Counted from the first letter of the stretch, positions 4,803 through 55,681 are shown. The stretch is DNA of 64,000 nt from Candidatus Yanofskybacteria bacterium RIFCSPHIGHO2_01_FULL_41_26 (GCA_001794055.1 MGJB01000017.1:21339-85338), one strand, 5' to 3'. Numbers and translations: made by a program. Notes: generated from the sequence alone by a model not told the origin.

Positions 4803-4835
4803 TGGTTTAGAAATTAGTAATTAATAATTAGAAAT

Positions 4836-7976: not shown

Positions 7977-8224
7977 TCTTGGCCAAGTAACTTTAAGGTT
8001 TCGCCGTATTCCTTAACGGTCCGGTCAATTGCCTCGTCAATCTCGCTCTTTTTTTGGGATGTTAAAAAATTGCTGGATAGGCCAAGCATGTCCTTCTCCG
8101 CAATAATAAAGTTACGGCCGACTTTTTTGGCTTTAATCTGGCCGCTTTTTATTTTCTTGAATACGGCCACTCGACTTATCCCCAGCATCTTGGCCACTTC
8201 GCTTGTTGAAAGATATTTATTCAT
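7973..8224 (-). CDS. HTH DNA-binding protein, likely antitoxin partner of Doc
   Basis: 83 aa. LSTSEVAKMLGISRVAVFKKIKSGQI is a helix-turn-helix. Its stop overlaps the Doc gene start by 4 nt. Confidence 0.6.
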   Translation of the reverse strand: MNKYLSTSEVAKMLGISRVAVFKKIKSGQIKAKKVGRNFIIAEKDMLGLSSNFLTSQKKSEIDEAIDRTVKEYGETLKLLGQE

Positions 8225-8274
8225 AATGATAAGTTATCACATGTTAACCTTATGGTCAATGGTTAACATAGGAT

Positions 8275-8874
8275 TTATTCCGCCATTTTTAATAATTCTT
8301 CCAAAACGACCGAGAGTTCGACAACTCCGTCTTCTTCGGAAATGTGGCCTTTATTTTTCAGAACGATAATCTTCGCGTTTAAATTATTTCTAAACAATTC
8401 CGAGTTAATTAAAGAAACATAGGGGTCATTATCCGAAGCAATCAAGACAAAATTATTTGTATGCTGTTTTGTTTTCTCAAAATCAATTGGTGTGTTTATC
8501 CACTCATCGGCTATTTCTCTAGTATAAGTTTCGTCCCAGACTCCATCAGTTAAATTAAACCATCCGGCTACGAATACTACTCCGCCAACTTTTTGGTCGT
8601 CAGGCAATTGCTCCAAGTACCTCATTATCGCCTGGCAACCGATGCTATGACCAACAAAGTAAGTATTCTCGTCAGTCAACCCTACAACTTCGGACAGCTT
8701 TCTCAACCAAGATTTTATAGTAGGCTTATCTGTGTCGGGCATCTCCGGAATCATTACTTCGAATCCTCTCGTCTCTAATTCGTTCTTAAGCCAAACCAGC
8801 CACTCCTCGTTTGGCCAACCTCCCCAACCGTGAATTATGAGCACTCGTTTTTTCATTTCCTCAGTCCAATCCAA
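8275..8874 (-). CDS. YdeN/RBBP9-family alpha/beta serine hydrolase
   Basis: 199 aa. VGHSIGC nucleophile elbow. Size and layout match the Ser_hydrolase family. Start probably at the internal Met (about 8856), overlapping the ileS stop. Confidence 0.7.
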   Translation of the reverse strand: MDWTEEMKKRVLIIHGWGGWPNEEWLVWLKNELETRGFEVMIPEMPDTDKPTIKSWLRKLSEVVGLTDENTYFVGHSIGCQAIMRYLEQLPDDQKVGGVVFVAGWFNLTDGVWDETYTREIADEWINTPIDFEKTKQHTNNFVLIASDNDPYVSLINSELFRNNLNAKIIVLKNKGHISEEDGVVELSVVLEELLKMAE

Positions 8875-11800: not shown

Positions 11801-12368
11801 CAACTTCGTGAGATGATAACGGCGTTCCACAGCGTGTGCAGAAAGGCACGACCCGATGAGCCAAATACAATAATTTCCTATCCCAGATCTTTTTTATTAT
11901 CGCCCAGAGCGATTCAATGTATTGGTTTTTGTAAGTAATGTACGGATCATTCATATCGAGCCAGAAGCCCATTTTTTTGGTCATCTGTTCCCATTCGTTC
12001 TTGTATTTCCAAACGCTCTCCTTGGCCTTCTTGTTGAATTTGTCTATCCCATATGTTTCAATATCTTTTTTGTTTTTAAAGCCAAGCTCTTTCTCAACCT
12101 CTATTTCCACCGGCAGGCCGTGAGTATCCCAGCCGGCTTTGCGCAAGACAAAATATCCGCGCATTGTTTTGTAACGGCCAAAAACATCTTTATAGATCCG
12201 AGTTAGAAAGTGTCCGACATGGGGCAGTCCATTGGCGGTCGGCGGACCTTCAAAAAAAACAAAACGCTTCGCTTTTTGACGGTTTTCCAGAGATTTCTTA
12301 AAAATATTATTATCTCTCCAAAAGTCCAGTATCTTCTTTTCTTTATCGACAAAATTAGAATCAGCCAT
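8853..12368 (-). CDS. ileS: isoleucyl-tRNA synthetase with inserted histidine-phosphatase-like domain
   Basis: 1171 aa. PPTANGLPHVGH (HIGH), WTTTPWTLPGN editing domain and KMSKSKGN are present. Residues about 472-715 form an extra domain with RHG, SSPFIRTHETA and VSHGDP motifs. Confidence 0.9.
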   Translation of the reverse strand: MADSNFVDKEKKILDFWRDNNIFKKSLENRQKAKRFVFFEGPPTANGLPHVGHFLTRIYKDVFGRYKTMRGYFVLRKAGWDTHGLPVEIEVEKELGFKNKKDIETYGIDKFNKKAKESVWKYKNEWEQMTKKMGFWLDMNDPYITYKNQYIESLWAIIKKIWDRKLLYLAHRVVPFCTRCGTPLSSHEVAQGYKTVTDKSVFVKFKVKNSARSNLVGDLRSNLYVLAWTTTPWTLPGNVALAVGKDIGYTAVKVGDEIFILAESAVGRVLKDTKYEILNTTYKGSDLLGLEYEPLFSVEKLKSDKSYRIYDADFVSTEDGTGVVHTAVMYGEDDYNLGTKLGLPKFHTVDERGRFINIGHGLDRKYVKAKETEDLILDYLTTNHLLLITFNYEHDYPFCWRCDTPLLYYAKESWFIKMSAVNKELIENNRKTNWIPEHIKEGRFGQWLKEGKDWAFSRERYWGTPLPIWECNQPVRTTESVRSGGCDNKTTIGSVKELEKLSVSPQNTYYIMRHGFSTRNEGGDAIVNTRQENDAYHLTSEGEKMVEKSIELLKLEGVDYIFSSPFIRTHETASIAGKILHQKVVIDERLHEYRSASGWDGKPVSRYIAGGGGDRTMDSRQRDAESLNDVRKRMTEFMFELEAKYKNKNILIVSHGDPLWLLNTIAEGLTGDQILNKEGKAQWYPRIAEIKNLNWSKIPRNELGELDLHRPYIDSVVLKCSKCGSDMKKVPDLIDVWFDSGAMPYAQWHWPFDNKKISKEQFPADFIVEAIDQTRGWFFTLLAISTLLEKGAPYKNVMVLGHTLDEKGAKMSKSKGNYVPVMEFMDKYGVDVLRWYFLSSMTIGESKSVIPREIEDKQKGFFSTLDNCLRFYELYGKGEFGSFHDTKGKNLNLLDRWILSKLNRLLGEVSDGLDKYDPTSAAKTIEKFVAEDLSNWWLRRSRKRKEALGLLRFLLLEIAKVIAPFIPFMAEDIHMRLHRGRSSGTESVHLHDWPQVNKKQINKELEKQMEEIKNIVTLGLAQRKEKQIKVRQPLRAVHLGLSNEFPKDLEILVKEELNVKEIVYDKSQKELVCLNIELDQTLVYEGYARELMRQIQDMRKEAKYKVDDEIFGQWHSDDKEISEAIRQWSDEIKKEVLLSEFRNGPHDEKAYDIEKEFELAPQRKIWIGLRK

Positions 12369-32270: not shown

Positions 32271-32942
32271 TCATATAAATTGTCTGGCTATTTGGTACTT
32301 TCTATCTAAGTAAAATTCGGAGTTGTTGTAAATCAATTTAAAAAGCTTAATCGAATCATCTTTTGCAAAAACAAGTTTACAAACCCGACACTTTCCCATT
32401 TCCTCAATCCATCCCCCTTTTAAATCAGAATTCGCGCTAATACTGTCTTTTATCCATTCAAGAAATTTGGGACTTGCTGAATATAATCTTACTCTTAATT
32501 GAGGTTGAGCACTTTCTGGGTGTTTAAAAATACCAATACTACCGTCTCCATCTATACAACCTCTTAAAAAGTGCCAAAAATATTGTTGTGGGATAGATAG
32601 TTTATCCAAGGTTTTTGATTTTCTTGGACTTAAACCTATAGATAACAAGAACTCATAAAAATTTACATCTCCCAATTGAATCCTGAAACACTTTGTTTTT
32701 TGATATTTATCATTACCCCTATATTTTACTCCTATCTTATTTTTAGATCCTAAGCATTCTCTAAATTTCAAAACAAGCTCCTTATCCTTAGAAGTAAAAT
32801 CGATGTGTCTACCATCATTACACAAACAACCATCTGTAGTAATTAAGCCCATTACATATGCAAATTTAGGACTCCACTCAACCTTTATTTTAGACAATCT
32901 ATTCACCATATCTATTATACTAAACCCAATATCGTCTGCCAA
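32271..32942 (-). CDS. double-motif LAGLIDADG homing endonuclease
   Basis: 223 aa. YVMGLITTDGCL and FLRGCIDGDGSIG match the two LAGLIDADG motifs. Ends 6 nt from tRNA-Leu. Confidence 0.65.
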   Translation of the reverse strand: MADDIGFSIIDMVNRLSKIKVEWSPKFAYVMGLITTDGCLCNDGRHIDFTSKDKELVLKFRECLGSKNKIGVKYRGNDKYQKTKCFRIQLGDVNFYEFLLSIGLSPRKSKTLDKLSIPQQYFWHFLRGCIDGDGSIGIFKHPESAQPQLRVRLYSASPKFLEWIKDSISANSDLKGGWIEEMGKCRVCKLVFAKDDSIKLFKLIYNNSEFYLDRKYQIARQFI

Positions 32943-33015: not shown

Positions 33016-33402
33016 CTACACATTAAAGAATGACCTTGCGATCAGACCGGCAACGGTCTGTAAAATAACACCGACTGCCAAAACCACCGCAGCTCCGATA
33101 ATTCCGTTCTTTATTCTATCTTTTGCAGCTGTTGATTTTGTTTCATCACCACCGGCAAACATATAGGCGATACCACCCCAAATAATAAATATAACTGCCA
33201 AGATAACACCAACAATAATCAGGAATCTTGCAATTTGCTCTATTCTGTCTTGTATTTCTTGCAAAGTGATGGCACTTCCCGTCACAGGCAGCGTTGGATT
33301 AGGCAGTGCGGCCAAAACCAAAACAGGCACCAATAAAACCAGCGCGGTCATGGAAATATATCCTATCTTTTGTACTTTGTTCATTAATCCACCTCCCTTC
33401 AA
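33016..33402 (-). CDS. VirB2/TrbC-like pilin 1
   Basis: 128 aa. Signal peptide plus two hydrophobic helices split by a short polar loop (GIAYMFAGGDETKSTAAKDRIKNGIIGAAVVLAVG). Confidence 0.55.
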   Translation of the reverse strand: MKGGGLMNKVQKIGYISMTALVLLVPVLVLAALPNPTLPVTGSAITLQEIQDRIEQIARFLIIVGVILAVIFIIWGGIAYMFAGGDETKSTAAKDRIKNGIIGAAVVLAVGVILQTVAGLIARSFFNV

Positions 33403-33464
33403 ATTCTTAAAACTTGAAACTTGAAACCGTTAAGCCCCAGGTTTCATGACTCAAGATTCAAGAT

Positions 33465-33851
33465 TTAATTAATAATACAGATCCCCAGAACCTGGAATCT
33501 GCAGAAAAATCCTCTGGTCACGATTCCGGCCACTGTATTAATAATCACTCCAACCCCCAGAACTATCGCCGCTCCGATTGTGGCATTTTTCAATCTTGTC
33601 TGCGCTTCAGAAACCTTGGTAGCATCAGACCCAGCATACATATAAGTAATACCGCTCCAAACGATCATTATTACCGCAATTAAAACACTTGCCACCAGCA
33701 TAAACTGGGCAATTTGACCAATAAGACTATCGACTTCGGGTAGTGTTATCGGCTGTCCAGGAGGCAAGTCTGCTATCTGGCTAGCCCAACCCGTGTGAGC
33801 TATAGCTAAAAACAGAAGCATCACAAATAAAATTCTTGAAACAATTTTCAT
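33465..33851 (-). CDS. VirB2/TrbC-like pilin 2 (paralog; start trimmed to internal Met)
   Basis: Same architecture (GITYMYAGSDATKVSEAQTRLKNATIGAAIVLGVG). ORF-track upstream extension is probably not translated. Confidence 0.55.
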   Translation of the reverse strand: MKIVSRILFVMLLFLAIAHTGWASQIADLPPGQPITLPEVDSLIGQIAQFMLVASVLIAVIMIVWSGITYMYAGSDATKVSEAQTRLKNATIGAAIVLGVGVIINTVAGIVTRGFFCRFQVLGICIIN

Positions 33852-33859
33852 GTTATAAA

Positions 33860-34201
33860 CTAGCTGCAACGCAACGGGATAATTAGCGTGTAATCGGCTC
33901 CCAAAGCATTGGCGACTGTTGCAATAATAGTATAAGTGCCAAGAATTACTAAAATTCCGACCAGTCCCCATGTAAATGACTTCTTGGCTTCAGTGAACTT
34001 GGTTTCGTTTCCTTGGGCCATCATGAATTTAATTCCGTAAATTATTATATAGACAACAATAAGGATAAGTGCAAATCTTGTAAACCAGCAAGCCAATCCA
34101 GTAATTATACCGAAAACACTCTGGATGGTTAAATCAATCCCTTGATATTCACCGGTTGCTAAGAAAATTGTGATTCCGAAATTTTTTAGTTGGTTTTTCA
34201 T
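33860..34201 (-). CDS. VirB2/TrbC-like pilin 3 (start trimmed)
   Basis: 113 aa from MKNQLKNFG. IKFMMAQGNETKFTEAKKSFTWGLVGILVILG hairpin. Start abuts the upstream stop. Confidence 0.5.
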   Translation of the reverse strand: MKNQLKNFGITIFLATGEYQGIDLTIQSVFGIITGLACWFTRFALILIVVYIIIYGIKFMMAQGNETKFTEAKKSFTWGLVGILVILGTYTIIATVANALGADYTLIIPLRCS

Positions 34202-34203
34202 GT

Positions 34204-35568
34204 TTATTGCGGACGGAAACAACTTCCAAGTTTTTGTCCGTCTATTACCTGCTCGGCAGTCAAATCGCAGGCTAAGCCCGAGGAGCAGTTTACTCCTCCA
34301 ACACAGGCTTCTCCAACAAGGTTTCCTGTTGCTCTTTGACAAATAGAGTTCTTGCATTTCAGGCCTGAAAAACAATTCCTGTCATTGCTACATTTGTTTC
34401 CCACTGCTCCAGTAACCATAGCTCCTCCGGTAGTGCTTCCTGCCGGAAGAGTCGATCGCGAGTTTGCAGAAGGAGCACCCAATTCAAGTACGCTCTGTAT
34501 CAAAGTAACAAATCCGCTTCCGATAAGTATGATGACTAAGCCTACTACTGCCCATTTTAACACATCTCTTGCCTTTGTTATTTTCGCAGGTTCACCGGCA
34601 GCAGTCAAAAACAAAATCCCCGAATACACTATCATAGCAACTGCAATCGGTATTGCCAGATTGAATATCCATTGGGCAAGAATTTTCACCAGGCCCGATA
34701 AATCTTTAACCCCGCCCTTTAGCGGATTCGGAATTTCAAAAGAATATGTTTGTTCTTGGCCTGATTCGCAAGCAGGTTGACCTGAAGTGCCGCAGGTTGT
34801 TCCTCCATCACCGGATTGACAAACGCCTCTGCTGTCGCAAGATATGAGTTGAGATTTGGCCACGTCTGTGCCTTTACATATGATCGTGCCCTGATATGTT
34901 TTGCCGTTCGTCTGGCCGGGTTCATCAAAATCAAATTTATAGTTTGTCTTATCCAACGCGAATTGTCCGTTTCTTACCAGTTTGATCGGATTTATCTCTA
35001 TGGCTCTCCAGAAAGGGTCGGCTCCGCAAAAACTCTTCAACTCACCCGGCCTGGGAATATTTACCAAAAAAGTAAATCTAATAGTGCTCGCATTCAGTTG
35101 CGTCACATTGAAACTCGTAATTGTCGTTCCACCGTTGCTAGATTGAGCTGGATAAAGAAAGATTGGATTTGATTTTATATAACCACTTTGATTTTGAGGG
35201 AGGGCGGTAAAATAAATAGTTCCGGGGTTTTCGCTTCCACCCCTCTCCCAATCCTGAACAGTAAATACGTAATCATAATTAACGGTGCCGGAGGTGCCGG
35301 AAAACCTTTTTACCAAAGGGCCGACTATGCTATCATCGCCAAACACATCACTTTCAAAAATTTGAAGTCCGATGTTTTGATTAGAACAATCGGTCGGATT
35401 TTGGACAGAAATAGTCATTTGAATACTCTCACCCACCTTTACCGTGTTTTTGCTCCACCTTGCACTGGAAACGGTACAAGCAGCCGCTTCGGCTTTTTGA
35501 ACAACCAAAATAGAACCTGTCAAAAATAAAATTGAAAAAAATAATATTTTAATTCTCATAAATTTCAT
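34204..35568 (-). CDS. secreted protein with C-terminal pilin-like TM hairpin and Cys-rich tail
   Basis: About 454 aa. Signal peptide and large extracellular region. VirB2-like hairpin (IAVAMIVYSGILFLTAAGEPAKITKARDVLKWAVVGLVIILIG). Cys-rich C-terminus. ATGA overlap with the upstream gene supports start at 35568. Confidence 0.5.
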   Translation of the reverse strand: MKFMRIKILFFSILFLTGSILVVQKAEAAACTVSSARWSKNTVKVGESIQMTISVQNPTDCSNQNIGLQIFESDVFGDDSIVGPLVKRFSGTSGTVNYDYVFTVQDWERGGSENPGTIYFTALPQNQSGYIKSNPIFLYPAQSSNGGTTITSFNVTQLNASTIRFTFLVNIPRPGELKSFCGADPFWRAIEINPIKLVRNGQFALDKTNYKFDFDEPGQTNGKTYQGTIICKGTDVAKSQLISCDSRGVCQSGDGGTTCGTSGQPACESGQEQTYSFEIPNPLKGGVKDLSGLVKILAQWIFNLAIPIAVAMIVYSGILFLTAAGEPAKITKARDVLKWAVVGLVIILIGSGFVTLIQSVLELGAPSANSRSTLPAGSTTGGAMVTGAVGNKCSNDRNCFSGLKCKNSICQRATGNLVGEACVGGVNCSSGLACDLTAEQVIDGQKLGSCFRPQ

Positions 35569-36212
35569 TGGGTAGATGGATTTCCTTTCCACCTCCGCCA
35601 GATAGCGGATCCACCGTACCAGCCGCCGCTCACAAGTCCAATTCCTATTATAAAGTAAATTATAATTTTTTTCATCCCCCCCAAATCTCCTGCGGACGGT
35701 TCAGTCGATATGACCGGAACAGAAGTTGTCGTTTTGCAATCTGACGGGCAAGTTTTGATGTCTTCTCCAACATTGGAATTGCAAACACCATCATCATTGC
35801 AGAAAGAACTCTCGCTAACAAAAATAGATAGAAGTTGTTTCCCCTGTCCATCATAAAAATTAACTTTTTGGCCGTCTGGGGCATAAGGCGCTTTTACCGA
35901 AAGCGTTCCTTTCAAAAATTGAGGATTGCCTTGACGAGGATCAAAAACAAAGTTATCAGCAATTTGGTTGTTAAATGTTATTATTTCACCCTTAAAGGGG
36001 AACTGGGTATTCACGACCTCGGGAACAAATCTCTCTGAAACGACATCGTACTTAAATTCAGAATCTCGATCAGCAAAAAGCTGTCCATTGTCATAATAGA
36101 GCCGAAAAACATAACTCATCTCATAAGTCGGCGTGTCCAGAACAAATTCTGACGCCAAGACGGGACTGATCATAAAGAAAAGCGTCCCAAAAATGATAAA
36201 TAATATCTTCAT
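35565..36212 (-). CDS. secreted protein with C-terminal TM anchor
   Basis: 215 aa with signal peptide and C-terminal hydrophobic helix (IIIYFIIGIGLVSGGWYGG). Confidence 0.4.
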   Translation of the reverse strand: MKILFIIFGTLFFMISPVLASEFVLDTPTYEMSYVFRLYYDNGQLFADRDSEFKYDVVSERFVPEVVNTQFPFKGEIITFNNQIADNFVFDPRQGNPQFLKGTLSVKAPYAPDGQKVNFYDGQGKQLLSIFVSESSFCNDDGVCNSNVGEDIKTCPSDCKTTTSVPVISTEPSAGDLGGMKKIIIYFIIGIGLVSGGWYGGSAIWRRWKGNPSTQ

Positions 36213-37109
36213 TTAAAAATTAACATGAATATTTCCTCCGGTAGCATTATTTGGCTTACAAGCGGCTACATACTCATCTAGAAAAGAGACAACGGCACCG
36301 GAACTTCTTGCTGCTTGATAGAAATACTGGGAACAGCTGTTATGATCCGGCAGAAGATTAAAATCAGCGCACGTCCCACTTTTGCTGGTGCCGGGCTTGT
36401 GGCACTGCGAAATGCTAGGGCCACTACCCCCTTGAATTGTTGAGGACAGCCTTAAGGTGCATTTTCCACCACTCAAGCTGTTGAAGGATGCTATAAATTT
36501 TTTGGCTTGTTCCGATGCCTCTTGAGAAAGCAGGCATACTCCGTCATGGCTTTCACAGCCATGGGTCGGTGTTATGTTGGAAGCATCAACACAGGCCGTG
36601 CCAGAACATCCACTCGAAGAAACTAGACTAAAACTTTGATTACAGGCACCGGAAGGAAGCGGTCCTTCTGAAGGCTGAGGAACCGGAGGTTGAGACACGG
36701 TTGTAACTCTACACTCAAATTTCCACCATTCGGGAGCGATATTATCTTCAGCTATGCTTCTTATTATAGTATTTGTAATTAGCCATGAAGCCAAAATAAT
36801 GGCAACCCCAATAGCGGTATTCCAAAAAATGCTCCTGCCTTTGGAAATTAAACCGGGATTAGCTCCGCCCATCAAAATTAAAAATCCTCCCCAGACAAAA
36901 AGTATCGCCGCCACAGGAGGCATTAAGCCGATCAAAACAAAATCGATTACATTTTTAAGAAGACGAAATAGATCGCATTGATTACAAGGGGTCGGATTAA
37001 CAGAAGTTCCGCATGGTACAAGAGGCCACCAACTGACAGCGTAAGTAAAAATAGGGAAAAACATAAAAACAAGCACTGTCAGAACTATTATTTTTTTGCC
37101 TATTTTCAT
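36213..37109 (-). CDS. N-terminal pilin-like domain fused to Cys-rich extracellular domain
   Basis: 298 aa. ILFVWGGFLILMGGANPGLISKGRSIFWNTAIGVAIILASWLI hairpin, then about 180 aa with more than 14 Cys. Confidence 0.5.
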   Translation of the reverse strand: MKIGKKIIVLTVLVFMFFPIFTYAVSWWPLVPCGTSVNPTPCNQCDLFRLLKNVIDFVLIGLMPPVAAILFVWGGFLILMGGANPGLISKGRSIFWNTAIGVAIILASWLITNTIIRSIAEDNIAPEWWKFECRVTTVSQPPVPQPSEGPLPSGACNQSFSLVSSSGCSGTACVDASNITPTHGCESHDGVCLLSQEASEQAKKFIASFNSLSGGKCTLRLSSTIQGGSGPSISQCHKPGTSKSGTCADFNLLPDHNSCSQYFYQAARSSGAVVSFLDEYVAACKPNNATGGNIHVNF

Positions 37110-37129: not shown

Positions 37130-38443
37130 CTATCTTCTGCGTTGCATCAAAACATTTACTCTGGATTCAGCGTTGTTTATTGAGTCTTTAACCGACATCC
37201 TCCCAAAATTTACATCGTCTATCATATCGGCAAATATGCTTTCTATCGCGATATTATCTATCTGATACCAAGAACGGGCAGACAATGCCTGTATGGCAAA
37301 GACTCCAAGATCAAGATCGTTTCTTTGAAGCTCTATCAAGTCTCGGCGGGCGGAAGGACGAAGGGTTGCACTTAGATAATTTTGAGCTCCTTCTTTAGAA
37401 GCAAGATAGGCCACGAATTTCCATGCTTCATTCGGAAATTTAGAACTAGAAGTAACGGCAGCACCCCAATAGTTTGCGTAATTCTTAAGGTCCGTGCTTG
37501 AAACTTGAGGCATAGATGCCACACCAAAATTAAGACGCGAGAATTTATTCTTTAAAACTTCCACCTCATGAGAATAATTGAACATCATCGCGGTTTTCCC
37601 TTCCGTAAAAGCATCAACAGAATAGTGCTGGACATCGTTCCAAGTATAGTTTCTAACCGAAGGATTAGCAAAATCAGTGTAATACTTCAAAGCCAACTCC
37701 CCGACCGGAGTGTTGTTGACCTGTCTAGCAAATGAGGCTCCGATGTTGTCAGCATCTGTCATCCTTACTCCTGTCTGAATCATCAGTGCCGCCAAAATAT
37801 CAGTCGAGCGATTAATGTTCCGGGACGTGCCGATGGCCGCTGCAGATTGGAGAATCTGGCCGCTTCCATCCAGCCGGGTTATGGTTTCCACATCGGAATT
37901 AAACTCTTCCCAGTTCTGGGGTGGACGAGTAATACCGGCACTGTTTAAAATATCTTTATTGTAAAAAAGGGCTAAAGTATCAACATAGAGCGGAAGAGCA
38001 TAAATTTGATTATTAAAAACAAAATCATTGAAAGCCACATCGACAAAATTGGTCTTGTAGTCCTGAATGGTTAACAGAGGTTCTTTTTGTCCGGGAATCG
38101 TGGCCGGAAGAGCCTTTAACTTGTCGCCATGTTTAGGCAGCCAAGAATTATGAATCATGACAATATCCGGTCCAGTACCAGAAGCCAAAGAATCAATCAA
38201 GCTTTTTTCATATTCTTCATAAGAAAAAATCCGGTATAAAACTTTGACCTCCGGATTCTGGGCTTGAAAGCCGGTAATAACTTTATCAAAAGCACTTTTG
38301 TCGTCAAAAACTCCCCAAAATTCAAGAGTAGCAGATTGGGTATTACCTCCGCCACCAATACTTTTTAAAATCAAAATTACCGTCAAAAATACGGCAACAA
38401 CTACTGAACCGACTAAAATGTAGAAGATTTTGTTGGTATTCAT
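37130..38443 (-). CDS. extracellular solute-binding protein (family 1, sugar ABC-type), membrane-anchored
   Basis: 437 aa with N-terminal TM. SBP_bac_1-like sequence. No permease or ATPase adjacent. Confidence 0.7.
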   Translation of the reverse strand: MNTNKIFYILVGSVVVAVFLTVILILKSIGGGGNTQSATLEFWGVFDDKSAFDKVITGFQAQNPEVKVLYRIFSYEEYEKSLIDSLASGTGPDIVMIHNSWLPKHGDKLKALPATIPGQKEPLLTIQDYKTNFVDVAFNDFVFNNQIYALPLYVDTLALFYNKDILNSAGITRPPQNWEEFNSDVETITRLDGSGQILQSAAAIGTSRNINRSTDILAALMIQTGVRMTDADNIGASFARQVNNTPVGELALKYYTDFANPSVRNYTWNDVQHYSVDAFTEGKTAMMFNYSHEVEVLKNKFSRLNFGVASMPQVSSTDLKNYANYWGAAVTSSSKFPNEAWKFVAYLASKEGAQNYLSATLRPSARRDLIELQRNDLDLGVFAIQALSARSWYQIDNIAIESIFADMIDDVNFGRMSVKDSINNAESRVNVLMQRRR

Positions 38444-45777: not shown

Positions 45778-45812
45778 ATCAGCACGTTCGTTTCCAACCA
45801 AAGAGGTGACAA

Positions 45813-46553
45813 GTGAAAAAAATCGCAACGCTCAGCCTATCGGTTAGGCTAGTAGTGTTCCAATACCATGTCAAAAACGCGAGTATCCCCGAAGGTATTC
45901 CGAAGTACTCGGATTTCCACAAACCAACAGCTAGTCAATTTGAAGGCACTGGTGTCCAAGTCATGGGACCAACTCCTGATGTCCTATCAGAATTTATTGA
46001 CAACAGCGACTATCAATTGATTGATGCATGGCACGCCACAGAAGAAGACTGGACTCGGAGTGCCGTTCGATTCGTGTTCTGTCACAAAGAATATCTGAAT
46101 CCAGCTGGGCTTCGTCCGGAATTCGTCACCCAGAGAGACGGCTTACTAGAGTCTTTCAACAGACTCGCAGGCAAAAACCTATGGCAGACAATGGCTCATA
46201 TCAATCCATTTTTTGTCGCCGGAAAAGCAACAGACGAGACAGTTCTCGTGTTGGATTGCAACTCCCGTAAAGAAGCAACGAAGTTTATTCGGGTCGAGAC
46301 CGGAGAATTCAATCTTGTTCCGGCCAAGACCGAAGACGAAGAAGAGATTTTTGTAAAAGAACCTGTCACCGTCATGGTGGAAGAACCAGTTATCGTTTTC
46401 CAGGGTGGCCGGGAAAAAGTGGAACGAGGAATCGGTCCTGGCATCGGACCCAAGGTCCTCTTGACCGACAAAGCCAACCGATTAAAGTTGGTCAGCAACG
46501 AGGTCGTTCTCGTTGCTCCTGAACCAATTCCGGCTTCGGCTTCAGCCACCTAA
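45813..46553 (+). CDS. hypothetical protein (GTG start; GC about 52%)
   Basis: 246 aa ORF with AAGAGGTG RBS. No recognisable domain. Confidence 0.45.
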   Translation: MKKIATLSLSVRLVVFQYHVKNASIPEGIPKYSDFHKPTASQFEGTGVQVMGPTPDVLSEFIDNSDYQLIDAWHATEEDWTRSAVRFVFCHKEYLNPAGLRPEFVTQRDGLLESFNRLAGKNLWQTMAHINPFFVAGKATDETVLVLDCNSRKEATKFIRVETGEFNLVPAKTEDEEEIFVKEPVTVMVEEPVIVFQGGREKVERGIGPGIGPKVLLTDKANRLKLVSNEVVLVAPEPIPASASAT

Positions 46554-46578
46554 CTATTTTTAAGGAGTAACACTCCCT

Positions 46579-46611
46579 GGCCCGCACAAAAGTGCGGGCC
46601 CTTGACTTTTT
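46579..46611 (+). terminator. rho-independent terminator
   Basis: GGCCCGCAC-aaaa-GTGCGGGCC then CTTGACTTTTT. Confidence 0.5.
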
Positions 46612-46629
46612 ATACGAAAGGAGTATAAT
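46602..46629 (+). promoter_or_regulatory. sigma70-like promoter TTGACT-16-TATAAT with about 270 nt structured leader
   Basis: -35 at 46602-46607. -10 at 46624-46629. Leader has a 16 bp stem (46672-46687 with 46765-46780) and several GC hairpins before ATG 46897. Confidence 0.4.
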
Positions 46630-46896
46630 GATGATATACAGTAAAAATTTAGTTACTTTAATAACTTACTTAGGAAAGAGCGTTTGAGGAGCGAAGGCGA
46701 CGAAATACTGAGGCCAACAGGCCGAATGTATTCAAAATGATATGGTCTAAGATATCTTCGCAGTTCAAACGCTCTTTCCTAAACTACCGCATTTCCGCGG
46801 GATGCCGTCATACGACGACTGCTCCGCTACGCGGGTTGTTATGGGGATGTTCCCCGGAAGAGCTTACGCCCCAAAGGGGCAATTGGAGAGTGTATC

Positions 46897-47715
46897 ATGG
46901 CGAGACAGAATTACAACCGTGTCGGTGTCGAACGTGTGACCGACGAGCAGATTGCAGCGATGGCAAAAACTGGTGTTAGCGACGCCAGCACAGACCTCTC
47001 GGTCGCCGAGCGCGCAGGCGCCGACGACAAGGTCGCGGCCGTCGTGGCGGAGAACGCTCCGCAGCGTGTCTCGACCTTCACACCCGAAGCGCGGGTGTGG
47101 ATCGAGGGCAACAAGGAGCTGAATACCGAGGGCCTCTACGGCCAGCGGAGTCTCCTGGCTATCCGCCCGGAAGACTTCCAGCAGCGCGCACAGTTCCTCG
47201 GACGCCCCCTCACGGTGGCGGATCTCGAGGAGATCCACGGCGTCGACACGTCAGCACCGGCGTCGATGGACTGCACGACCTGCGGGAAGGCTGTGACGTC
47301 CTTCATCCGTACGGCCATGATCGGCCGTGACGGCGACCTGCGCCGCAACCCGGATGGGAACATCACCTACCGCGGTCAGGCCGTGACCACGGGACGTCCG
47401 CTGGCGGTTCACGCAGCTCACACGGGCACGTGCCTGTACAAGTTGCGCAACAACCTCGAACAGACGAAGAAGCTGACGAGTGGCCGAGAGGTCGCCAAGT
47501 TGCTTCACTCGCACTCGTTCGAGCAGGCCAACGCGCGGTTGGCCGGCATCCAGGGTCACTTCAACGCGAAGGACCAGGAGAAGCAGGCGATGAAACAGCG
47601 CCTGGGCGCCAGGACCGGTGGCGACGCCGCCGGATTCAGCAATGGGGCGAACTTCACGCCCCGCACGCCCCGTGGCAAGTCCCGCAAGGAGTCGCGGAAC
47701 TGGAACGCCGAGTAA
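46897..47715 (+). CDS. hypothetical protein, strongly GC-rich (about 63% GC)
   Basis: 272 aa ORF with GGAGAG RBS. Codon usage unlike the rest of the window. Antisense ORFs are composition artefacts. Confidence 0.5.
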   Translation: MARQNYNRVGVERVTDEQIAAMAKTGVSDASTDLSVAERAGADDKVAAVVAENAPQRVSTFTPEARVWIEGNKELNTEGLYGQRSLLAIRPEDFQQRAQFLGRPLTVADLEEIHGVDTSAPASMDCTTCGKAVTSFIRTAMIGRDGDLRRNPDGNITYRGQAVTTGRPLAVHAAHTGTCLYKLRNNLEQTKKLTSGREVAKLLHSHSFEQANARLAGIQGHFNAKDQEKQAMKQRLGARTGGDAAGFSNGANFTPRTPRGKSRKESRNWNAE

Positions 47716-47736
47716 TATCGACGTCAAGCATCCTTG

Positions 47737-47780
47737 GGGAGGAAGAGACACTGGTCTCTCTCCTCCCCCGGGGTGTTTTT
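47737..47780 (+). terminator. rho-independent terminator
   Basis: GGGGAGGAAGAGACA-ctgg-TCTCTCTCCTCCCC then T-run. Confidence 0.55.
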
Positions 47781-47792
47781 TAATACTTAAAT

Positions 47793-47821
47793 ATTGACTT
47801 ATTTAATGTTTTAGTGTATCA
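47793..47821 (+). promoter_or_regulatory. sigma70-like promoter TTGACT-17-TATCAT with structured about 150 nt leader
   Basis: Leader contains a nested 19 bp stem (CAGGTAGTGAAATTTCCAA ... TTGGAAATTCTACTACCTG) and a GGTACgaaaGGTACC hairpin before ATG 47979. Confidence 0.45.
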
Positions 47822-47978
47822 TATGATCAGTACCAAAATCTCGGGAGAATTCATCAGGTAGTGAAATTTCCAATTCTAGATTTTCCGACAAAGTCGGATT
47901 TGGAAATTCTACTACCTGACGAGCTCTTCTACAATTGAATAGGTACGAAAGGTACCAAGAAAGAGGGAGGAAAGAGCC

Positions 47979-49478
47979 ATGCAGGAGATCAGGTACGAGG
48001 ATTTGGCTGACCATTTGGCCAGCGGTAAAGATTTTATTGTTGAGCTGGGCGAACAGAAAGGTATCGGTTCCAGCAGTCTCTTGGTTCGCAAGTGCGAAAA
48101 AACATTTCTGATTGACCGCGGTGCCGCCTTTGAAGGCATTGGTACAAACAAAATTACCACCTTCCCTGTCGGCGGGAATCTTGAGGAAATCTACATTGAC
48201 CTCATGATTTTCACCCACGTGCATGCCGATCACATTTTACAAATCGTGCCGACCGTGTTGATGCACGGCGAATCACGAGTGGTATTTTCAAAGAAGACAC
48301 TAGAGGAGCTGAAAATCGTTTTGGCCGATTCTTTGTCTATTCAGAGAAAAGAAGCCAAGAAAGCCTACTACTCTGGATTACCGGCACCGAAAGCCGAGTT
48401 CAACGAAGAAGATGTTGCAACTTTTCTAGCTCGAGCCGAAGCCGGTTTTTATGAAATAGTGGACACCGATGAAGAAGATGAATGGATTACCTTTGAAGAT
48501 TGGCCAGGATGGGAATTCGGATTCACATTTTCCGGACATACTAAGGGAGCCTTCATCTCTCTCATAAAGTCGCCCGATGGCGACGGCCTCGTCTTTTCAG
48601 GCGATTTGTCCGGCCACAATCAGGAAACAACGCGAGGCGTGAAAACGTTGAGCGAAAGTTTCTTGGCAATGGCCGAATTCCGAAAATGCCGGCGAATCAT
48701 TCTTGTTACGGAAGCCACCAACGGCAACCGCGATATTGAAGAGAGCCAAGAAGAGATGGACGCCCGACTCAAGGCTGTCCTGAATGAAACCCAGCGCAAG
48801 GGTGGCCACGCTCTGATGCCGGTATTCATGGTCAATCGTGGACCAAATATCGTTACCAAATTGGTTCGTCTCGGATTTAAAGTGTTCGTTGCCGGCGGGG
48901 TCAGAAAAACCCTTGCCGTAGAAGTTGGAGCTGACATCGTTGAAAAATGGAAGGCCGACGGAACAGTCATGTTCATTGAGAACGGGCCGAACTATTCGAG
49001 CCAGATCAAGGCTGCCTCTCGAGGCGAATATGGCTTCCGGCCAATTGTTACTTCTTCGGCTACGTTAGACCAGGGAGCCGGAGTTGAATTCGCAATCGAG
49101 ATGTTGCCAGTTCCGGAAAATGTATTGATTTCGACCGGTCATCGTTTTGATGGGTCGGCCATGAAGGAGTTTTTTGAGATAAAGAACCGGCCAATTGGGC
49201 CCGGTCATACGATTGTATTGAATAGAATGGATAGAGACTTTCATTCAGTAAAACATGCGGTTAATGTCAGATGTGGCGGACACCACTTTGACTATTCCGC
49301 ACACTCAGATCGGAAAGAGTTGGTCGCATTTACAACCAACCTCAATCCTGACATTATCTTCATAAAGCATTGCACCGAAGACGGATTCAATGGTCTGGAA
49401 TCGGCCCTGCGTAGCGAGTTGAGAGAAAAGTGCCCTCCGATCAGTCGGGCGCGCCACCTCCATTTGTTTGAATTCTAA
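47979..49478 (+). CDS. beta-CASP family MBL-fold ribonuclease (RNase J/CPSF73-like)
   Basis: 499 aa. FTHVHADH (HxHxDH), FSGH, SGDLSGH, and C-terminal YSAHSD (beta-CASP motif C). Confidence 0.65.
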   Translation: MQEIRYEDLADHLASGKDFIVELGEQKGIGSSSLLVRKCEKTFLIDRGAAFEGIGTNKITTFPVGGNLEEIYIDLMIFTHVHADHILQIVPTVLMHGESRVVFSKKTLEELKIVLADSLSIQRKEAKKAYYSGLPAPKAEFNEEDVATFLARAEAGFYEIVDTDEEDEWITFEDWPGWEFGFTFSGHTKGAFISLIKSPDGDGLVFSGDLSGHNQETTRGVKTLSESFLAMAEFRKCRRIILVTEATNGNRDIEESQEEMDARLKAVLNETQRKGGHALMPVFMVNRGPNIVTKLVRLGFKVFVAGGVRKTLAVEVGADIVEKWKADGTVMFIENGPNYSSQIKAASRGEYGFRPIVTSSATLDQGAGVEFAIEMLPVPENVLISTGHRFDGSAMKEFFEIKNRPIGPGHTIVLNRMDRDFHSVKHAVNVRCGGHHFDYSAHSDRKELVAFTTNLNPDIIFIKHCTEDGFNGLESALRSELREKCPPISRARHLHLFEF

Positions 49479-49501
49479 ATTAGGGCCTTCTAGTGCCCGG
49501 G

Positions 49502-52572: not shown

Positions 52573-52647
52573 GGGCGTGTAGCTCAGTGGTAGAGCACGG
52601 TACTTATAATACCGGGGTCGGAGGCTCGATCCCTCCCACGCCCACCA
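52573..52647 (+). tRNA. tRNA with anticodon TAT (Ile, AUA-reading)
   Basis: Manual fold: GGGCGTG/CACGCCC acceptor, anticodon stem CGGTA/TACCG, loop CTTATAA, T-arm GGAGGCTCGATCCCTCC, CCA encoded. Confidence 0.7.
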
Positions 52648-54130
52648 TAATAAAACTAGACGACTTTTTTGAAGTCAATTGATGGGCGGCACGAAGTGCC
52701 GCCCATTGATTTTCCCCTGACAAATCCTCTCCGCTCGGCGCGCGCAGCCGCGCCTCGCGGTTGGCCAAAACGAGGTTCGAGCCGAAAAGTTTTTCGGCAG
52801 CAACCTTTTTCTCAAAAAGGTTGCTCTCTTGTGCGATTTTAGGCAGAGATTCTGCCTCTTTTATCCATTCCGACATCGGTTCGAGCCAGCCAGTCCGCTT
52901 TTGTTCAAAGTTGATGATTTGCTCCTCCAGCGACTTTTTCTCGCTCATAAAGTTTCGTTTCTTTTCGAGATAAGTTTCTCGTTCAATGTCCTGTTCCAAA
53001 TAGCCATCTAAAAGTCGCTGGAGTTTAACAGTGATAATTTTTACTTTAGTTTCCGATTCTTGAACAAAAGCGGTTGCGGATTGGGCGGATTCCTTTTTGT
53101 CTTTTTCAAGTATTTTATTCATCTGTTCCGCCCAATCCGGTCTCAAAGAAAATTTTTGAAGCAGAGAGGATAACTGCCGATCCAGTTCTTCCTCGCGGAC
53201 ATAAGGTTGGCTACACTGTATGTTTTTCTTGGTGCAACGATAGTAAGTATGACCTTTTTGGATTTCGGCAGTTATCATTCTTCCGCATTCTTCACAACGC
53301 AATAAATTAGTGAAGGGTTTAGCGATTTTAGGATTACCCTTTGGTTTTCCTCTCTGCTTCATTACCTCTCGGACTTTATCAAAAATTTTCTTTGAGACTA
53401 CTGGCTGGTGCTTGCCTTCATACACCTCACCCGCATAACGAAAATGTCCATAGTAAAATGGATTGGAGAGGATAAAAGAAATTCTGTCTCGGTGAAGTTT
53501 CTTGCCGCCAGAGGAGAGAATACCATGTTGCGCCAAAAAGTTTACAATATCTTCCAAACGAGAGCTGTTTTGTCCATATAGCTCAAAGGCCTTGCGAATA
53601 ATAACTGATTTCTTTTTGTCCACAACGATTGATTTAGTACGAACATCGTTTAGATAACCAACTGGCGCAAGGCCGGGATATTCTCCTCGTCTGACTTTTT
53701 GGCGCAACCCTCGTTTGGTATTCTCACTCAAATTGTCCACATAGTATTTGCTTTGCCCAAAAGCGATATTGAGCATGAACTTACCTTGGGCGGTATTTTC
53801 ATACCAAAACTGTGGAAACTTCAGGCCCGCAAGTCCACCTGTGTCCAAAAGATAAATAATCTTTCCACCATCAACAGAATTGCGCGCCAGTCTGTCAGGA
53901 TGCCAAGCCAAAATTCCGTTTGCTTCACCGCGCTCGATGCGAGCAAACATTTCGTTAAAAATCGGTCTGCCAGGAATTTTGGCCGACTGCTTTTCCACCA
54001 ACTCCTCCACTATCTCCAAATTTTCACGCTTGGCAAACTCGCGCAATTCTGTGAGTTGCGCTTCAATCGAGAGGACTTGCTTATCCTCAACATCTGTGGA
54101 TTTGCGGGCATACAAAAAGAATTTTTGCAT
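52604..54130 (-). CDS. large serine recombinase (resolvase/invertase N-domain + recombinase + zinc-ribbon + coiled coil)
   Basis: 508 aa. N-terminal YARKSTDVEDKQVLSIEAQ (catalytic Ser). RLARN motif. C-terminal CxxC...CxxC. The 3' end overlaps the tRNA 3' end. Confidence 0.85.
   Translation of the reverse strand: MQKFFLYARKSTDVEDKQVLSIEAQLTELREFAKRENLEIVEELVEKQSAKIPGRPIFNEMFARIERGEANGILAWHPDRLARNSVDGGKIIYLLDTGGLAGLKFPQFWYENTAQGKFMLNIAFGQSKYYVDNLSENTKRGLRQKVRRGEYPGLAPVGYLNDVRTKSIVVDKKKSVIIRKAFELYGQNSSRLEDIVNFLAQHGILSSGGKKLHRDRISFILSNPFYYGHFRYAGEVYEGKHQPVVSKKIFDKVREVMKQRGKPKGNPKIAKPFTNLLRCEECGRMITAEIQKGHTYYRCTKKNIQCSQPYVREEELDRQLSSLLQKFSLRPDWAEQMNKILEKDKKESAQSATAFVQESETKVKIITVKLQRLLDGYLEQDIERETYLEKKRNFMSEKKSLEEQIINFEQKRTGWLEPMSEWIKEAESLPKIAQESNLFEKKVAAEKLFGSNLVLANREARLRAPSGEDLSGENQWAALRAAHQLTSKKSSSFIMVGVGGIEPPTPVL
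52645..52779. repeat. inverted repeat X, left copy (about 135 bp, GC-rich)
   Basis: Reverse complement matches 54335-54472 with 3 mismatches. Begins within tRNA 3' end. Contains GGGCGGCAC-gaa-GTGCCGCCC palindrome. Confidence 0.8.
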
Positions 54131-54772: not shown

Positions 54773-55681
54773 ATGGCAAATTTTTATCAGCATAAAAACT
54801 ATAGTTTCCAAGATTTTGACCTCTTGGTTGATGATGGGGTTATTTATGCTTGTTATATCAAAAAGGCACCTCGCCTAATAGGCGAACATGACTCCCGCCA
54901 GCCCAATATTTATGCAATGGCAAAAAGCAAGGATAGTGTGAATTGGGAAGAAGTCGGAGATATTATTTTGCCCGTTCCAAATTCTTGGGAAGAAAGTATT
55001 TGGGCTGGCGGGATTTCCAAACAAAATGACAAATACGTTATTTACTACACCGGCACAACCATGAAAGGACGCAACGATTTTTGCAAAATAGGCAAAGCAT
55101 ATTCTGAAGACCTCGCTCATTGGGAAAAAGATTTAGAAAATCCAGTTTTTATTTTTGATTCACAAAGTCCTTACTACTCTGATGAGAAAAAATTGGCCTT
55201 TCGCGACCCTTTCTTTTTTGAACACGAGGGTAGAAAGTATATCCTTTTCTGTGCAAAAGATAAAAAACAACCAGCAGGAAAACAAGGATGTATCGGTGTA
55301 GCTGAAGAAACAGAACAAAATAAATTTTGTTGGATGCCGCCAATTTTTTCTCCCGGAATATATTTTGATGGATTAGAATGTCCTGCACTCTATAAAATCA
55401 AGGATAAATGGTATCTACTTTATGGGATTGACATGGAGAATGACGAAAAGGCATTCCGATATGCTGTAGCAGACTCCCCATTCGGGCCATATAAAACTTT
55501 TAAGGATAATCAGCTCTTATCAAGCAATAACTATACTTGCCGAATTATAAATTTTGGAGGTAAAAATTTGCTTTATCATTGGTTTAGAGATAATCAGAAT
55601 GGCAAGACGCGTGAGCGTCTTGCGCCTCCGAAAGGGGTGCACATTTTAGAAGACGGCAGAATTTCACTTTCGGAAATATAA
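54773..55681 (+). CDS. GH32-like (clan GH-J beta-fructosidase-like) five-bladed beta-propeller glycoside hydrolase
   Basis: 302 aa. FRDPFFF (RDP motif) and GLECPALY (EC motif) of GH32/GH68. N-terminal nucleophile motif not clearly seen. Confidence 0.5.
   Translation: MANFYQHKNYSFQDFDLLVDDGVIYACYIKKAPRLIGEHDSRQPNIYAMAKSKDSVNWEEVGDIILPVPNSWEESIWAGGISKQNDKYVIYYTGTTMKGRNDFCKIGKAYSEDLAHWEKDLENPVFIFDSQSPYYSDEKKLAFRDPFFFEHEGRKYILFCAKDKKQPAGKQGCIGVAEETEQNKFCWMPPIFSPGIYFDGLECPALYKIKDKWYLLYGIDMENDEKAFRYAVADSPFGPYKTFKDNQLLSSNNYTCRIINFGGKNLLYHWFRDNQNGKTRERLAPPKGVHILEDGRISLSEI

Follow-up and report, generated by a model that had tools for sequence, protein, structure and literature searches.

The window analyzed here is a 64-kb stretch of chromosome from a Rifle-aquifer groundwater Candidatus Yanofskybacteria (Patescibacteria/CPR), an ultra-small bacterium; cultivated members of the CPR/Patescibacteria are epibionts. 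Six tightly packed, co-directional minus-strand genes (g1 to g6) span positions 33016-37109 (Table 1). The successive intergenic gaps from g1 to g6 are 0, -4, 2, 8, and 80 nt, which gives the genes the appearance of one operon. A gene for a membrane-anchored solute-binding protein lies 20 nt upstream of g1 and is the conserved first gene of what is a seven-gene, co-directional cassette (solute-binding protein, g1, g2, g3, and three small pilins). This gene holds the same position at the syntenic loci L024 and L025, overlapping g1 by 4 nt in the latter, and an open reading frame (ORF) of 442 to 443 aa (domain content unscanned) takes its place at L008 and L009; the L008 ORF again shares 4 nt with g1. 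No ABC permease gene was seen adjoining it. The placement of the cassette between gyrA and ValRS is kept in several Yanofskybacteria, and the cassette is native by composition (GC of 0.42 for the array and 0.41 for the window). A LAGLIDADG-type endonuclease gene sits directly downstream; the endonuclease block is absent from L024 and L025. The initial sequence-only reading of this DNA had recognized the five hairpin-encoding genes and overlooked both g2, which encodes no hairpin, and the solute-binding protein gene.

Table 1. Features of the pilin cassette (positions counted from the first nucleotide of the window)
Feature	Position	Strand	Description	Support
Solute-binding protein	37130..38443	-	437 aa, membrane anchored (SBP_bac_1/SBP_bac_8)	Pfam 4.1e-31
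g1	36213-37109	-	298 aa; signal peptide, Cys-stapled pilin-type helical hairpin, Pro-rich linker, LAS zinc-peptidase-like head	
g1 pilin module	36753..36977	-	aa 45-119; helices H45-82 and H86-119, loop GGANPG	AF2 model
g1 head	36216..36662	-	aa 150-298; disulfide-rich LAS-type zinc peptidase domain (predicted)	
g2	35565-36212	-	215 aa; signal peptide, beta-rich ectodomain with CxxxGxC...E...CxxDC, C-terminal TM anchor	
g3	34204-35568	-	454 aa; signal peptide, two Ig-like domains, pilin hairpin, disordered linker, 8-Cys beta domain	
g4	33860-34201	-	113 aa; small VirB2-like pilin paralog	PF18895 26.6 bits
g5	33465-33851	-	128 aa; small VirB2-like pilin paralog	PF18895 30.9 bits
g6	33016-33384	-	122 aa from the ATG behind GGAGG; small VirB2-like pilin paralog	PF18895 47.8 bits

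The kinship with VirB2/TrbC pilins proposed from sequence alone was borne out by profile searches for g3 to g6. At the Pfam gathering threshold of 26.6 bits for PF18895 (T4SS_pilin), g6 gave the best match, g3 scored 38.3 bits, and g4 fell exactly on the threshold; g1, at 22.1 bits, was just below it, and several g1 homologs carry a prior PF18895 annotation. The canonical TrbC/VirB2 family (TrbC, PF04956; threshold, 27.9 bits) matched g6 at 27.1 bits and g5 at 17.0 bits, both under threshold, and none of the other proteins among g1 to g6. A further match of g4 to the NCBIfam Mbov_0395 pilin-like family (31.5 bits) was also under its cutoff. The three small genes contain the hairpin loops described earlier (YMFAGGDETK, YMYAGSDATK, and FMMAQGNETK). 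A hydrophobicity scan found an N-terminal hydrophobic segment and two more segments in g1, g3, g5, and g6, while g4 has both hairpin helices and a weak N-terminal segment. Read directly, the N-termini are of the ordinary Sec type and precede two hydrophobic helices, in contrast to the single helix of T4P; features of type IV (T4P/T2SS) pilins were not found, as there is no class III signal peptide (G/FTLIE-type prepilin motif). No sequence similarity to solved pilins was found. The small pilins are 13 to 52% identical among themselves (g5 and g6, 52% over the pilin module) and share 64 to 88% identity with the orthologs at the corresponding positions of L024 and L025 (73% and 84% for g4, 64% and 81% for g5, and 64% and 88% for g6, respectively). 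These identities indicate three conserved one-to-one orthologs without recent duplication.

In the AlphaFold models of the fusion proteins g1 and g3, the two-helix hairpin is predicted with confidence. The g3 hairpin (aa 290-364; AF2 helices 290-322 and 327-364) is preceded by two Ig-like beta-sandwich domains (aa 33-139 and 149-253) and followed by a small disulfide-rich 8-Cys beta domain (aa 387-452). The earlier description of a 454-aa protein with a hairpin and a Cys-rich tail holds, and its N-terminal part is newly read as the two beta-sandwiches. Pilin-family similarity was detected, and the hairpins were not predicted as ordinary anchors of an unrelated fold, which supports the earlier interpretation. 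The pilin hairpin is indeed reused as a module in larger proteins, and far more generally than could be seen from this locus.

The C-terminal part of g1 had been described as a 180-aa domain with more than 14 Cys. It is Cys rich, with 10 of the 14 Cys of the whole protein lying within a domain of ∼150 aa; its fold and motif point to a predicted Hedgehog/DD-peptidase-fold (LAS) zinc peptidase domain and not to a generic surface domain. The model displays the LAS fold, a central antiparallel sheet with flanking helices. H237, D249, and H295 are the putative Zn ligands and E279 is the putative general base, and all four residues are invariant. The family motifs (H-x6-D, exactly spaced in the short variants, a Glu, and a terminal [H/N]-x-H, which is HxH in remote members, as in Shh) match those of the Hedgehog N-terminal domain, the bacterial Hh/DD-peptidases (M15-type), and the LAS enzymes VanX, VanY, MepA, and LdcB (Roelink 2018, PMC6027127). 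Unlike these enzymes, g1 itself has an H-to-D spacer of 11 residues and NIH in place of HxH (the first His being Asn), its head contains ten Cys with about five disulfides expected, and sequence homology was not detectable. No HMM or profile-profile link to the M15 or Hedgehog families was found, hhalign against ShhN gave a probability of 0.04, and neither Pfam and NCBIfam nor a PDB search with the domain profile yielded a match for the head. The domain family is also tiny (40 representatives in 1.84 billion proteins). Nearly all members scanned carry a PF18895 module as well, a near-constant fusion that sets them apart from the known LAS enzymes.

Relatives of the g1 head in other Patescibacteria may link it to the secretion machinery. 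In two proteins (P0197 and P0201) the domain is joined to an SLT lytic transglycosylase, and homologs lie directly downstream of virB4 at two loci, L014 (homolog at 9278-10438, virB4 at 7040-9121) and L017. Gram-positive T4SS hydrolases are membrane-anchored VirB1-like proteins that combine an SLT or lysozyme domain with a CHAP-type peptidase domain (PMC12102498). The g1 enzyme would likewise be extracytoplasmic and membrane tethered, and its family carries SLT glycosidase and peptidase domains together or alternately (P0201, P0197, and L024). It differs from these hydrolases in its anchor, a VirB2-like hairpin and not a single TM helix, in its predicted peptidase, a LAS zinc enzyme and not a Cys-His CHAP or NlpC domain, and in having no glycosidase domain (no SLT domain was found in g1 with Pfam); g1 itself, unlike its homologs at L014 and L017, is not near virB4.

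Comparison of the syntenic loci revealed that the hairpins stay conserved between close relatives while the heads of g1 and g3 are exchanged. The N-terminal module of g1 is 67 to 69% identical to its counterparts in L024 and L025, but the heads cannot be aligned: the g1 position carries an SLT domain in L024, a second LAS-motif head in L025, and the Hedgehog-like LAS head at the present locus. The Hedgehog-like head is kept in L008 and L009. The counterparts of g3 in close relatives bear different beta-sandwich domains. This pattern would fit a diversification toward different host envelopes.

No VirB4, VirD4, or VirB6 gene was found in the window or its flanks (∼10 kb on each side); the ATPase check of the window, which scanned all ORFs of at least 430 aa, agrees with the sequence-only reading in finding neither VirB4 nor VirD4. 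The array therefore does not lie close to a virB4 cluster at this locus. A PilB-like ATPase is encoded ∼30 kb from the array, a few kilobases past the window's right end. Across the Patescibacteria, however, virB4 occurs near a pilin gene in only 1,135 of 1,948 assemblies (PMC12102498), so that proximity to virB4 is not strictly required of the family. Sister genomes that carry this cassette are recorded as VirB4-positive; in one of them, that of L025 (GCA_001794125.1), no VirB4 lies closer than 8 kb to the cassette. In one part of that survey's Table S1, 37 of 44 Yanofskybacteria assemblies are VirB4-positive (PMC12102498).

Tandem VirB2-like pilin arrays are already published for the Patescibacteria. 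VirB2-like pilins were reported in 1,948 VirB4-positive assemblies, with 441 arrays of 2 to 11 genes (PMC12102498, Quinonero-Coronel et al. 2025), and Southlakia epibionticum ML1 has an essential six-pilin array inside its T4SS cluster (PMC10633639, Wang et al. 2023). The present array shares with these the PF18895/PF04956 family, tandem sequence-divergent paralogs, and a monoderm CPR chromosome with no relaxase context. It differs in not adjoining virB4, in being a syntenic cassette of seven genes in fixed arrangement, whose orthologs pair one to one between species, and in including two members with large exchangeable ectodomains. These enzyme- and adhesin-like heads are what the present locus adds, and the literature examined on Patescibacteria T4SS pilins makes no mention of pilin-hydrolase or pilin-adhesin fusions. 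Gram-negative conjugative pili (VirB2/TraA shaft, VirB5 tip adhesin) also consist of small, signal-peptide-bearing two-helix pilins, and g3 could play a VirB5-like role as a separate adhesin-like component. Unlike in those pili, the envelope here is monoderm, there is no VirB5 homolog, and adhesin and enzyme are each linked covalently to a pilin module.

Collectively, these observations suggest, with a probability of about two-thirds, that the locus is the pilin cassette of a monoderm-type (MPF-FATA-like) Patescibacteria T4SS, encoded away from its VirB4 ATPase, with heads displayed on hairpins. This reading draws on the PF18895 matches, the confident helical hairpins, and the sub-threshold matches to TrbC and to pilin-like proteins of monoderm conjugation. 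It draws further on the organism's place in the Patescibacteria, the published pilin arrays, the LAS fold and invariant residues of the g1 head, the g1-head homologs behind virB4, their SLT fusions and near-constant pairing with PF18895, the orthology of the small pilins, the swapping of heads, the native GC, and the VirB4-positive sister genomes. Counted against it are the lack of T4SS ATPase or VirB6 genes in and around the window, the g1 hairpin below the Pfam threshold and g6 just under that of TrbC, the lack of sequence similarity to any solved pilin, a peptidase call made from fold and motif, with Asn at the first HxH His, and the lack of any observed pilus among Patescibacteria T4SSs. 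All hairpin proteins would be exported by Sec and sit in the membrane in the VirB2 topology, the short charged loop facing inward and both termini outward. The three small pilins, individually conserved and probably ancient paralogs, may be the units of a short filament or stalk that the T4SS assembles across the cell's own wall. Through the same hairpin, g1 and g3 would join or dock on this filament and display their outer domains. The g1 head may cut peptide links in peptidoglycan, as a VirB1-like opener of the cell's own wall, on the host wall, or both, and g3 would act as an adhesin with its two Ig-like domains and disulfide-knotted tail on display.

The hairpins might alternatively be mere membrane anchors or channel subunits that form no filament, the cassette then supplying surface wall-remodelling and adhesion proteins together with small translocon subunits. 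The model for this explanation would be the proteins annotated as pilin-like in conjugation systems of monoderms. Gram-positive T4SSs generally lack pili, no pilus has been observed for any Patescibacteria T4SS (PMC10633639), and the hairpin fold is generic. Sub-threshold NCBIfam matches link the cassette to the Mycoplasma ICE "pilin-like" protein (Mbov_0395) and to the conjugation membrane proteins pLS20_p028 and MMCAP2_0566, in which the hairpin stands alone (80 aa) or is N-terminal and followed by a long domain in proteins of 320 to 380 aa. These matches, at 15.9 to 31.5 bits, are well below the curated cutoffs of 40 to 150. We consider the explanation unlikely, as it does not readily account for three small, separately conserved proteins that consist of a hairpin and no further domain, the architecture is VirB2/TrbC-like with a near-threshold HMM score, and the pilin genes of S. 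epibionticum are themselves essential.

Swappable peptidoglycan-hydrolase heads on a conserved N-terminal module also recall polymorphic secreted toxins, and g2, which is extracytoplasmic and encoded 0 nt after g1, could be read as the immunity protein of a g1 effector aimed at the host wall. This is quite improbable because g2, which has no family match in Pfam or NCBIfam, is 61 to 64% identical to its positional counterparts in L024 and L025 whichever head g1 carries (Hedgehog-like LAS, SLT, or second LAS), with no co-variation, and is missing from L008 and L009, which nonetheless have the Hedgehog-like head. An effector role without immunity would overlap with the preferred pilin-cassette reading. 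Finally, a phage-derived lysis cassette (holin-like two-TM proteins with an endolysin-like hydrolase) or mobile-element remnant, suggested by small two-TM proteins adjoining a wall hydrolase and by the downstream endonuclease gene, is effectively refuted, since none of the six proteins matches a PHROG family, signal peptides precede the hairpins, composition is native, the gyrA-ValRS synteny is conserved, and the endonuclease block is not shared by the syntenic loci.

Beyond the pilin-cassette reading, we tentatively raise the possibility, itself doubtful, that the T4SS filament is a modular display platform, whose hairpin carries exchangeable tools (LAS enzymes including the Hedgehog-like one, SLT domains, and Ig-like adhesins) to the site of host contact, with heads swapped by recombination. 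To our knowledge, covalent enzyme-pilin fusions are known for no VirB2-type pilus, and a literature search found no description of them. If the proposal is true, binding of the host cell wall and its enzymatic opening would both fall to the pilus or stalk, head swapping by recombination would track host envelope types, and the co-operonic orphan solute-binding protein might capture the released material.

The six genes g1 to g6 are packed in an operon-like manner, with successive intergenic gaps of 0, -4, 2, 8, and 80 nt from g1 to g6. Two of them encode pilin-module proteins that carry outer domains (the headed proteins g1 and g3), three encode small pilins (g4, g5, and g6), and g2 lacks a hairpin. 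The GC content of the array (0.42) matches that of the window (0.41), so the array is not compositionally foreign, and the surrounding DNA is ordinary chromosome with gyrA, several aminoacyl-tRNA synthetases, FtsH, trigger factor, tmRNA, and ten tRNAs. A hypothetical protein identical to g1 is present in a Rifle-aquifer Candidatus Yanofskybacteria MAG, and the contig was found again in Rifle metagenomes. Proteins of the assembly are deposited as OGM98294-OGM98299 and OGN21614-OGN21619, under the locus-tag prefixes A2915_ and A2649_.

Genes of the pilin cassette and protein identity at the corresponding loci of two other Yanofskybacteria, L024 (GCA_002771155.1) and L025 (GCA_001794125.1)
Feature	Position	Strand	Length	Remarks	Identity to L024 / L025
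gyrA					83% / 89%
Membrane-anchored solute-binding protein (SBP_bac_1)	37130-38443			gene end 20 nt upstream of g1	
g1	36213-37109	minus	298 aa	N-terminal module with hairpin	69% / 67%
g1 head				C-terminal domain	unalignable / unalignable
g2	35565-36212	minus	215 aa	signal peptide and one C-terminal helix (hydrophobicity scan)	61% / 64%
g3	34204-35568	minus	454 aa	headed pilin-module protein	alignable in hairpin region only, both
g4	33860-34201	minus	113 aa	small pilin	73% / 84%
g5	33465-33851	minus	128 aa	small pilin	64% / 81%
g6	33016-33384	minus	122 aa	small pilin	64% / 88%

Hydrophobicity scans identified a signal-peptide-like segment followed by two more hydrophobic helices in g1, g3, g5, and g6, and the two hairpin helices in g4, which agrees with the description given in the sequence-only reading. 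All five hairpin proteins matched the Patescibacteria pilin profile PF18895 (T4SS_pilin; Pfam threshold, 26.6 bits), with scores of 47.8 for g6, 38.3 for g3, 30.9 for g5, 26.6 (at the threshold) for g4, and 22.1 bits (below the threshold) for g1. The TrbC/VirB2 profile PF04956 fell just short with g6 (27.1 bits against a threshold of 27.9), and NCBIfam families of pilin-like and hairpin-bearing proteins from monoderm conjugative elements were matched below threshold only. AlphaFold models built from 24-sequence alignments contain confident long helical hairpins in both g1 (residues 45 to 82 and 86 to 119, pLDDT mostly >90) and g3 (residues 290 to 322 and 327 to 364). The PF18895 matches and the confident models thus give good support for placing the hairpins in the Patescibacteria pilin family, and membership in canonical VirB2/TrbC is near-threshold only. 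Under the main rival explanation, which is less likely but still plausible, the hairpins only anchor proteins in the membrane or serve as subunits of the translocon, and a filament is not formed. No sequence-level link was found between the small pilins and solved pilins. Overall, what the earlier reading observed is confirmed and its interpretation of the hairpins as pilin modules is supported, with one correction: g1 was said to carry more than 14 cysteines in its C-terminal domain, and the whole protein has 14, ten of them in that domain.

Comparison with L024 and L025 places the cassette in a syntenic locus that reads gyrA, methyltransferase, solute-binding protein, g1, g2, g3, three small pilins, VanW, HSP20, PrsW, and ValRS, and the order of g1, g3, and three pilins is also kept beside gyrA in two more distant relatives (L008 and L009). 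Within this conserved synteny the heads are exchanged: the g1 head is replaced by an SLT domain in L024 and by a second LAS variant in L025. These locus comparisons indicate that the three small pilins are old paralogs, each conserved individually rather than members of a recently diversifying family, and that the variable parts of the cassette are the displayed heads. A holin-endolysin or prophage origin of the array was rejected on the basis of native composition, conserved chromosomal synteny, and the lack of any PHROG match for g1 to g6.

The flanks of the locus differ in detail. The pilins of L024 and L025 run straight into VanW, HSP20, PrsW, and ValRS without an endonuclease block, so that ∼3.6 kb of the window after the pilins has no counterpart there. 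This additional stretch holds a LAGLIDADG-type endonuclease gene (32271-32942; phrog_4645, 6.7e-34), which separates the last pilin gene from tRNA-Leu, as well as tRNA-Leu itself, an RluA-like gene, L19, two tRNAs, and a HATPase_c protein. In L025, gyrA (1881-5480; 1,199 aa) contains an intein with an Intein_splicing domain; the window gyrA product has 808 aa and no intein. An orphan membrane-anchored SBP_bac_1 protein is encoded directly upstream of g1 in the window, L024 (6667-7974), and L025 (6694-8004). Its gene and g1 overlap by 4 nt in L025, as do g1 and an unscanned ORF of 442 aa in L008. The solute-binding protein gene has no ABC permease gene beside it, and its product may work together with the pilin and hydrolase cassette. 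At L007 (8619-9995), in the 1.2-Mb genome GCA_964474825.1, a Peptidase_M23 protein rather than a solute-binding protein precedes the g1-like gene, placing a further wall hydrolase in a g1-type neighborhood.

The g1 homologs consist of two cleanly separate modules, as the first ∼135 residues are up to 88% identical despite differing C termini. The C-terminal domain of g1 (aa 150 to 298) could be aligned in 24 proteins, among which nine cysteines and residues S232, S234, H237, D249, E279, Y280, and H295 are invariant. A Foldseek search with this head placed 27 Hedgehog N-domains on top (probability, 1.00; TM score, 0.50 to 0.58), with VanXYc next. The defining LAS motif combines H-x6-D, H-x-H, and a catalytic Glu (H141, D148, E177, and H183 in Shh). 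Short variants of the head family preserve an exact H-x6-D (CHSNGTCAD), and the spacer in g1 is 11 residues; remote members end in GHVHCNL, GHMHCNF, or EHFHVHF, comparable to AHIHCSV in Shh, and g1 has GNIHVNF. No link to known peptidases was found in PDB sequences with phmmer and hmmsearch, none to ShhN with hhalign (with an ShhN sequence confirmed to be exact), and no sequence method connected the head with either the M15 or the Hedgehog families. The assignment draws on fold and motif, which point to a Hedgehog-like LAS zinc-peptidase-like domain with inferred peptidase activity.

When 1.84 billion representatives were searched exhaustively with a profile, the head family came to only 40 members (22 below 1e-30), and nearly all scanned members also contain the PF18895 module. 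Single-linkage clustering merged all C-terminal tails of the g1 N-module homologs through common linker and Ig regions, and the tails were sorted by domain. Among these 87 homologs, 21 have the g1-type head and 18 an SLT domain, while 29 end in one of two further tail types that are also LAS-like because of their motifs (SxHxxGxAVDF and HTH or DHIH). A He_PIG Ig domain is present in 23 of the 87, in nine of them together with SLT. The g1-type head domain is associated with both virB4 and SLT in other genomes. Two other Patescibacteria show the link with virB4. At L014, VirB4 (7040-9121; CagE_TrbE_VirB and TraG P-loop matches) is directly followed by a TM-anchored protein with the g1-type head (9278-10438), and the same order is found at L017, where the head-domain protein lies immediately downstream of the VirB4 homolog. 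The protein P0197 joins SLT to the g1-type head, and in P0201 that head occurs together with a pilin module, a He_PIG Ig domain, FN3, and SLT. The domain repertoire of the g1 family is that known from Gram-positive T4SSs, whose VirB1-like hydrolases are bifunctional and membrane anchored. Those enzymes are held by a single TM helix, whereas the g1 family uses a pilin hairpin as the carrier. An extreme form of the headed-pilin theme occurs on a contig labeled Saccharibacteria (L013, 1796-9590), where a 970-aa pilin-module protein with a Hedgehog-like head adjoins a 1,620-aa pilin-module protein and two further pilin-module proteins flank the pair.

In the g3 model, the hairpin is followed by a disordered linker and a confident small 8-Cys beta domain (aa 387 to 452), and Ig-like folds are predicted in the protein. 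Only the hairpin region is constant among g3 homologs; their N-terminal domains vary, and they have no, one, or two copies of the Cys-rich tail. Family-profile searches returned no match for g2. The idea that g2 confers immunity to the g1 head was ruled out because g2 does not covary with that head, being 61 to 64% identical where the heads are unrelated and absent where the same head is kept.

The sequence-only reading had reported no VirB4/VirD4 ATPase in the window, and none was found among all window ORFs of at least 430 aa. Past the window ends, VirB4 was likewise absent from ∼10 kb on the left to gyrB and a few kilobases on the right to a PilB-like ATPase with RuvB. This PilB-like type IV pilus ATPase (L022, 5024-6691; MshEN and T2SSE, 555 aa) adjoins NusA and RuvB, which shows that type IV pilus machinery is encoded in this genome in addition to the separate VirB2-like pilins. 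No VirB4 lies within 8 kb of the L025 cassette; that genome (GCA_001794125.1) is listed as VirB4 positive in Table S1 of Quinonero-Coronel et al. 2025 (PMC12102498), as are 37 of the 44 Yanofskybacteria assemblies in the section of the table covered here, including both RIFCSPLOWO2_01_FULL_41_* entries, which have a GC content that fits the window.

Several other features of the window were recorded. A block of raised GC (45800-49500; 0.48 to 0.54 against a background of 0.41) has overlapping ORFs on both strands, two without a Pfam match (45813-46553 and 46897-47715) and one matching the RMMBL domain only (47979-49478); no Rfam family matched in this block, which may be foreign DNA. A large serine recombinase on the minus strand (52573-54130; 508 aa; Resolvase, Recombinase, and zinc-ribbon domains) abuts and overlaps tRNA-Ile(TAT), possibly at the border of an integrated element. 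To the right of the recombinase are a GH43/32-like gene (54773-55681) and several ORFs without annotation. A class I tRNA synthetase of the I/L/M/V type (8853-12368; 1,171 aa) has a His_Phos_1 (histidine-phosphatase) domain inserted in the middle of its catalytic domain (aa 510 to 673).

Under the proposed mechanism, the hairpin proteins would be exported by Sec with both hairpin ends outside the membrane, a topology in keeping with the disulfide-rich outer domains that flank the hairpin. From the small pilins g4, g5, and g6, a distal T4SS would build a filament or stalk. The g1 protein would cut peptidoglycan cross-links in the cell's own wall, the host wall, or both, and g3 would serve in adhesion.

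The tandem pilin array as such is already known biology, because such arrays have been published for Patescibacteria. A search of 3,035 genomes with the PF18895 and PF04956 profiles found VirB2-like pilins in 1,948 VirB4-positive assemblies, with a pilin gene near virB4 in 1,135 of these, and 441 arrays of 2 to 11 pilin genes with a mean identity of ∼25% within an array (Quinonero-Coronel et al. 2025, PMC12102498). In Southlakia epibionticum, the pilin series inside the T4SS cluster is essential for epibiotic growth, and pili are normally absent from Gram-positive T4SSs (Wang et al. 2023, PMC10633639). A 2025 review considers the Patescibacteria systems unique among monoderms in their potential for conjugative pili, with no filament seen. 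We found no description in the searchable literature of the headed variant, which is characterized by a predicted Hedgehog-like LAS peptidase head, by the replacement of this head with SLT or other domains in syntenic loci, and by a putatively adhesin-headed partner. Most Patescibacteria with VirB2-like pilins apparently miss a VirB1 homolog, a published puzzle on which pilin-hydrolase fusions may bear: in this lineage a predicted wall hydrolase is joined to a pilin module and escapes standard profiles. The Hedgehog-like fold is of side interest for the evolution of Hh/DD-peptidases. More broadly, these proteins may bear on how ultrasmall CPR bacteria attach to host cells and feed from them; the T4SS and pilin array are essential in the sole genetically tractable species. 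The enzyme and adhesin fusions provide biochemical handles, namely, a soluble predicted zinc peptidase head for assays on host and self peptidoglycan, Ig-like heads for tests of host binding, and natural head-swap variants at one locus for comparison with host range.
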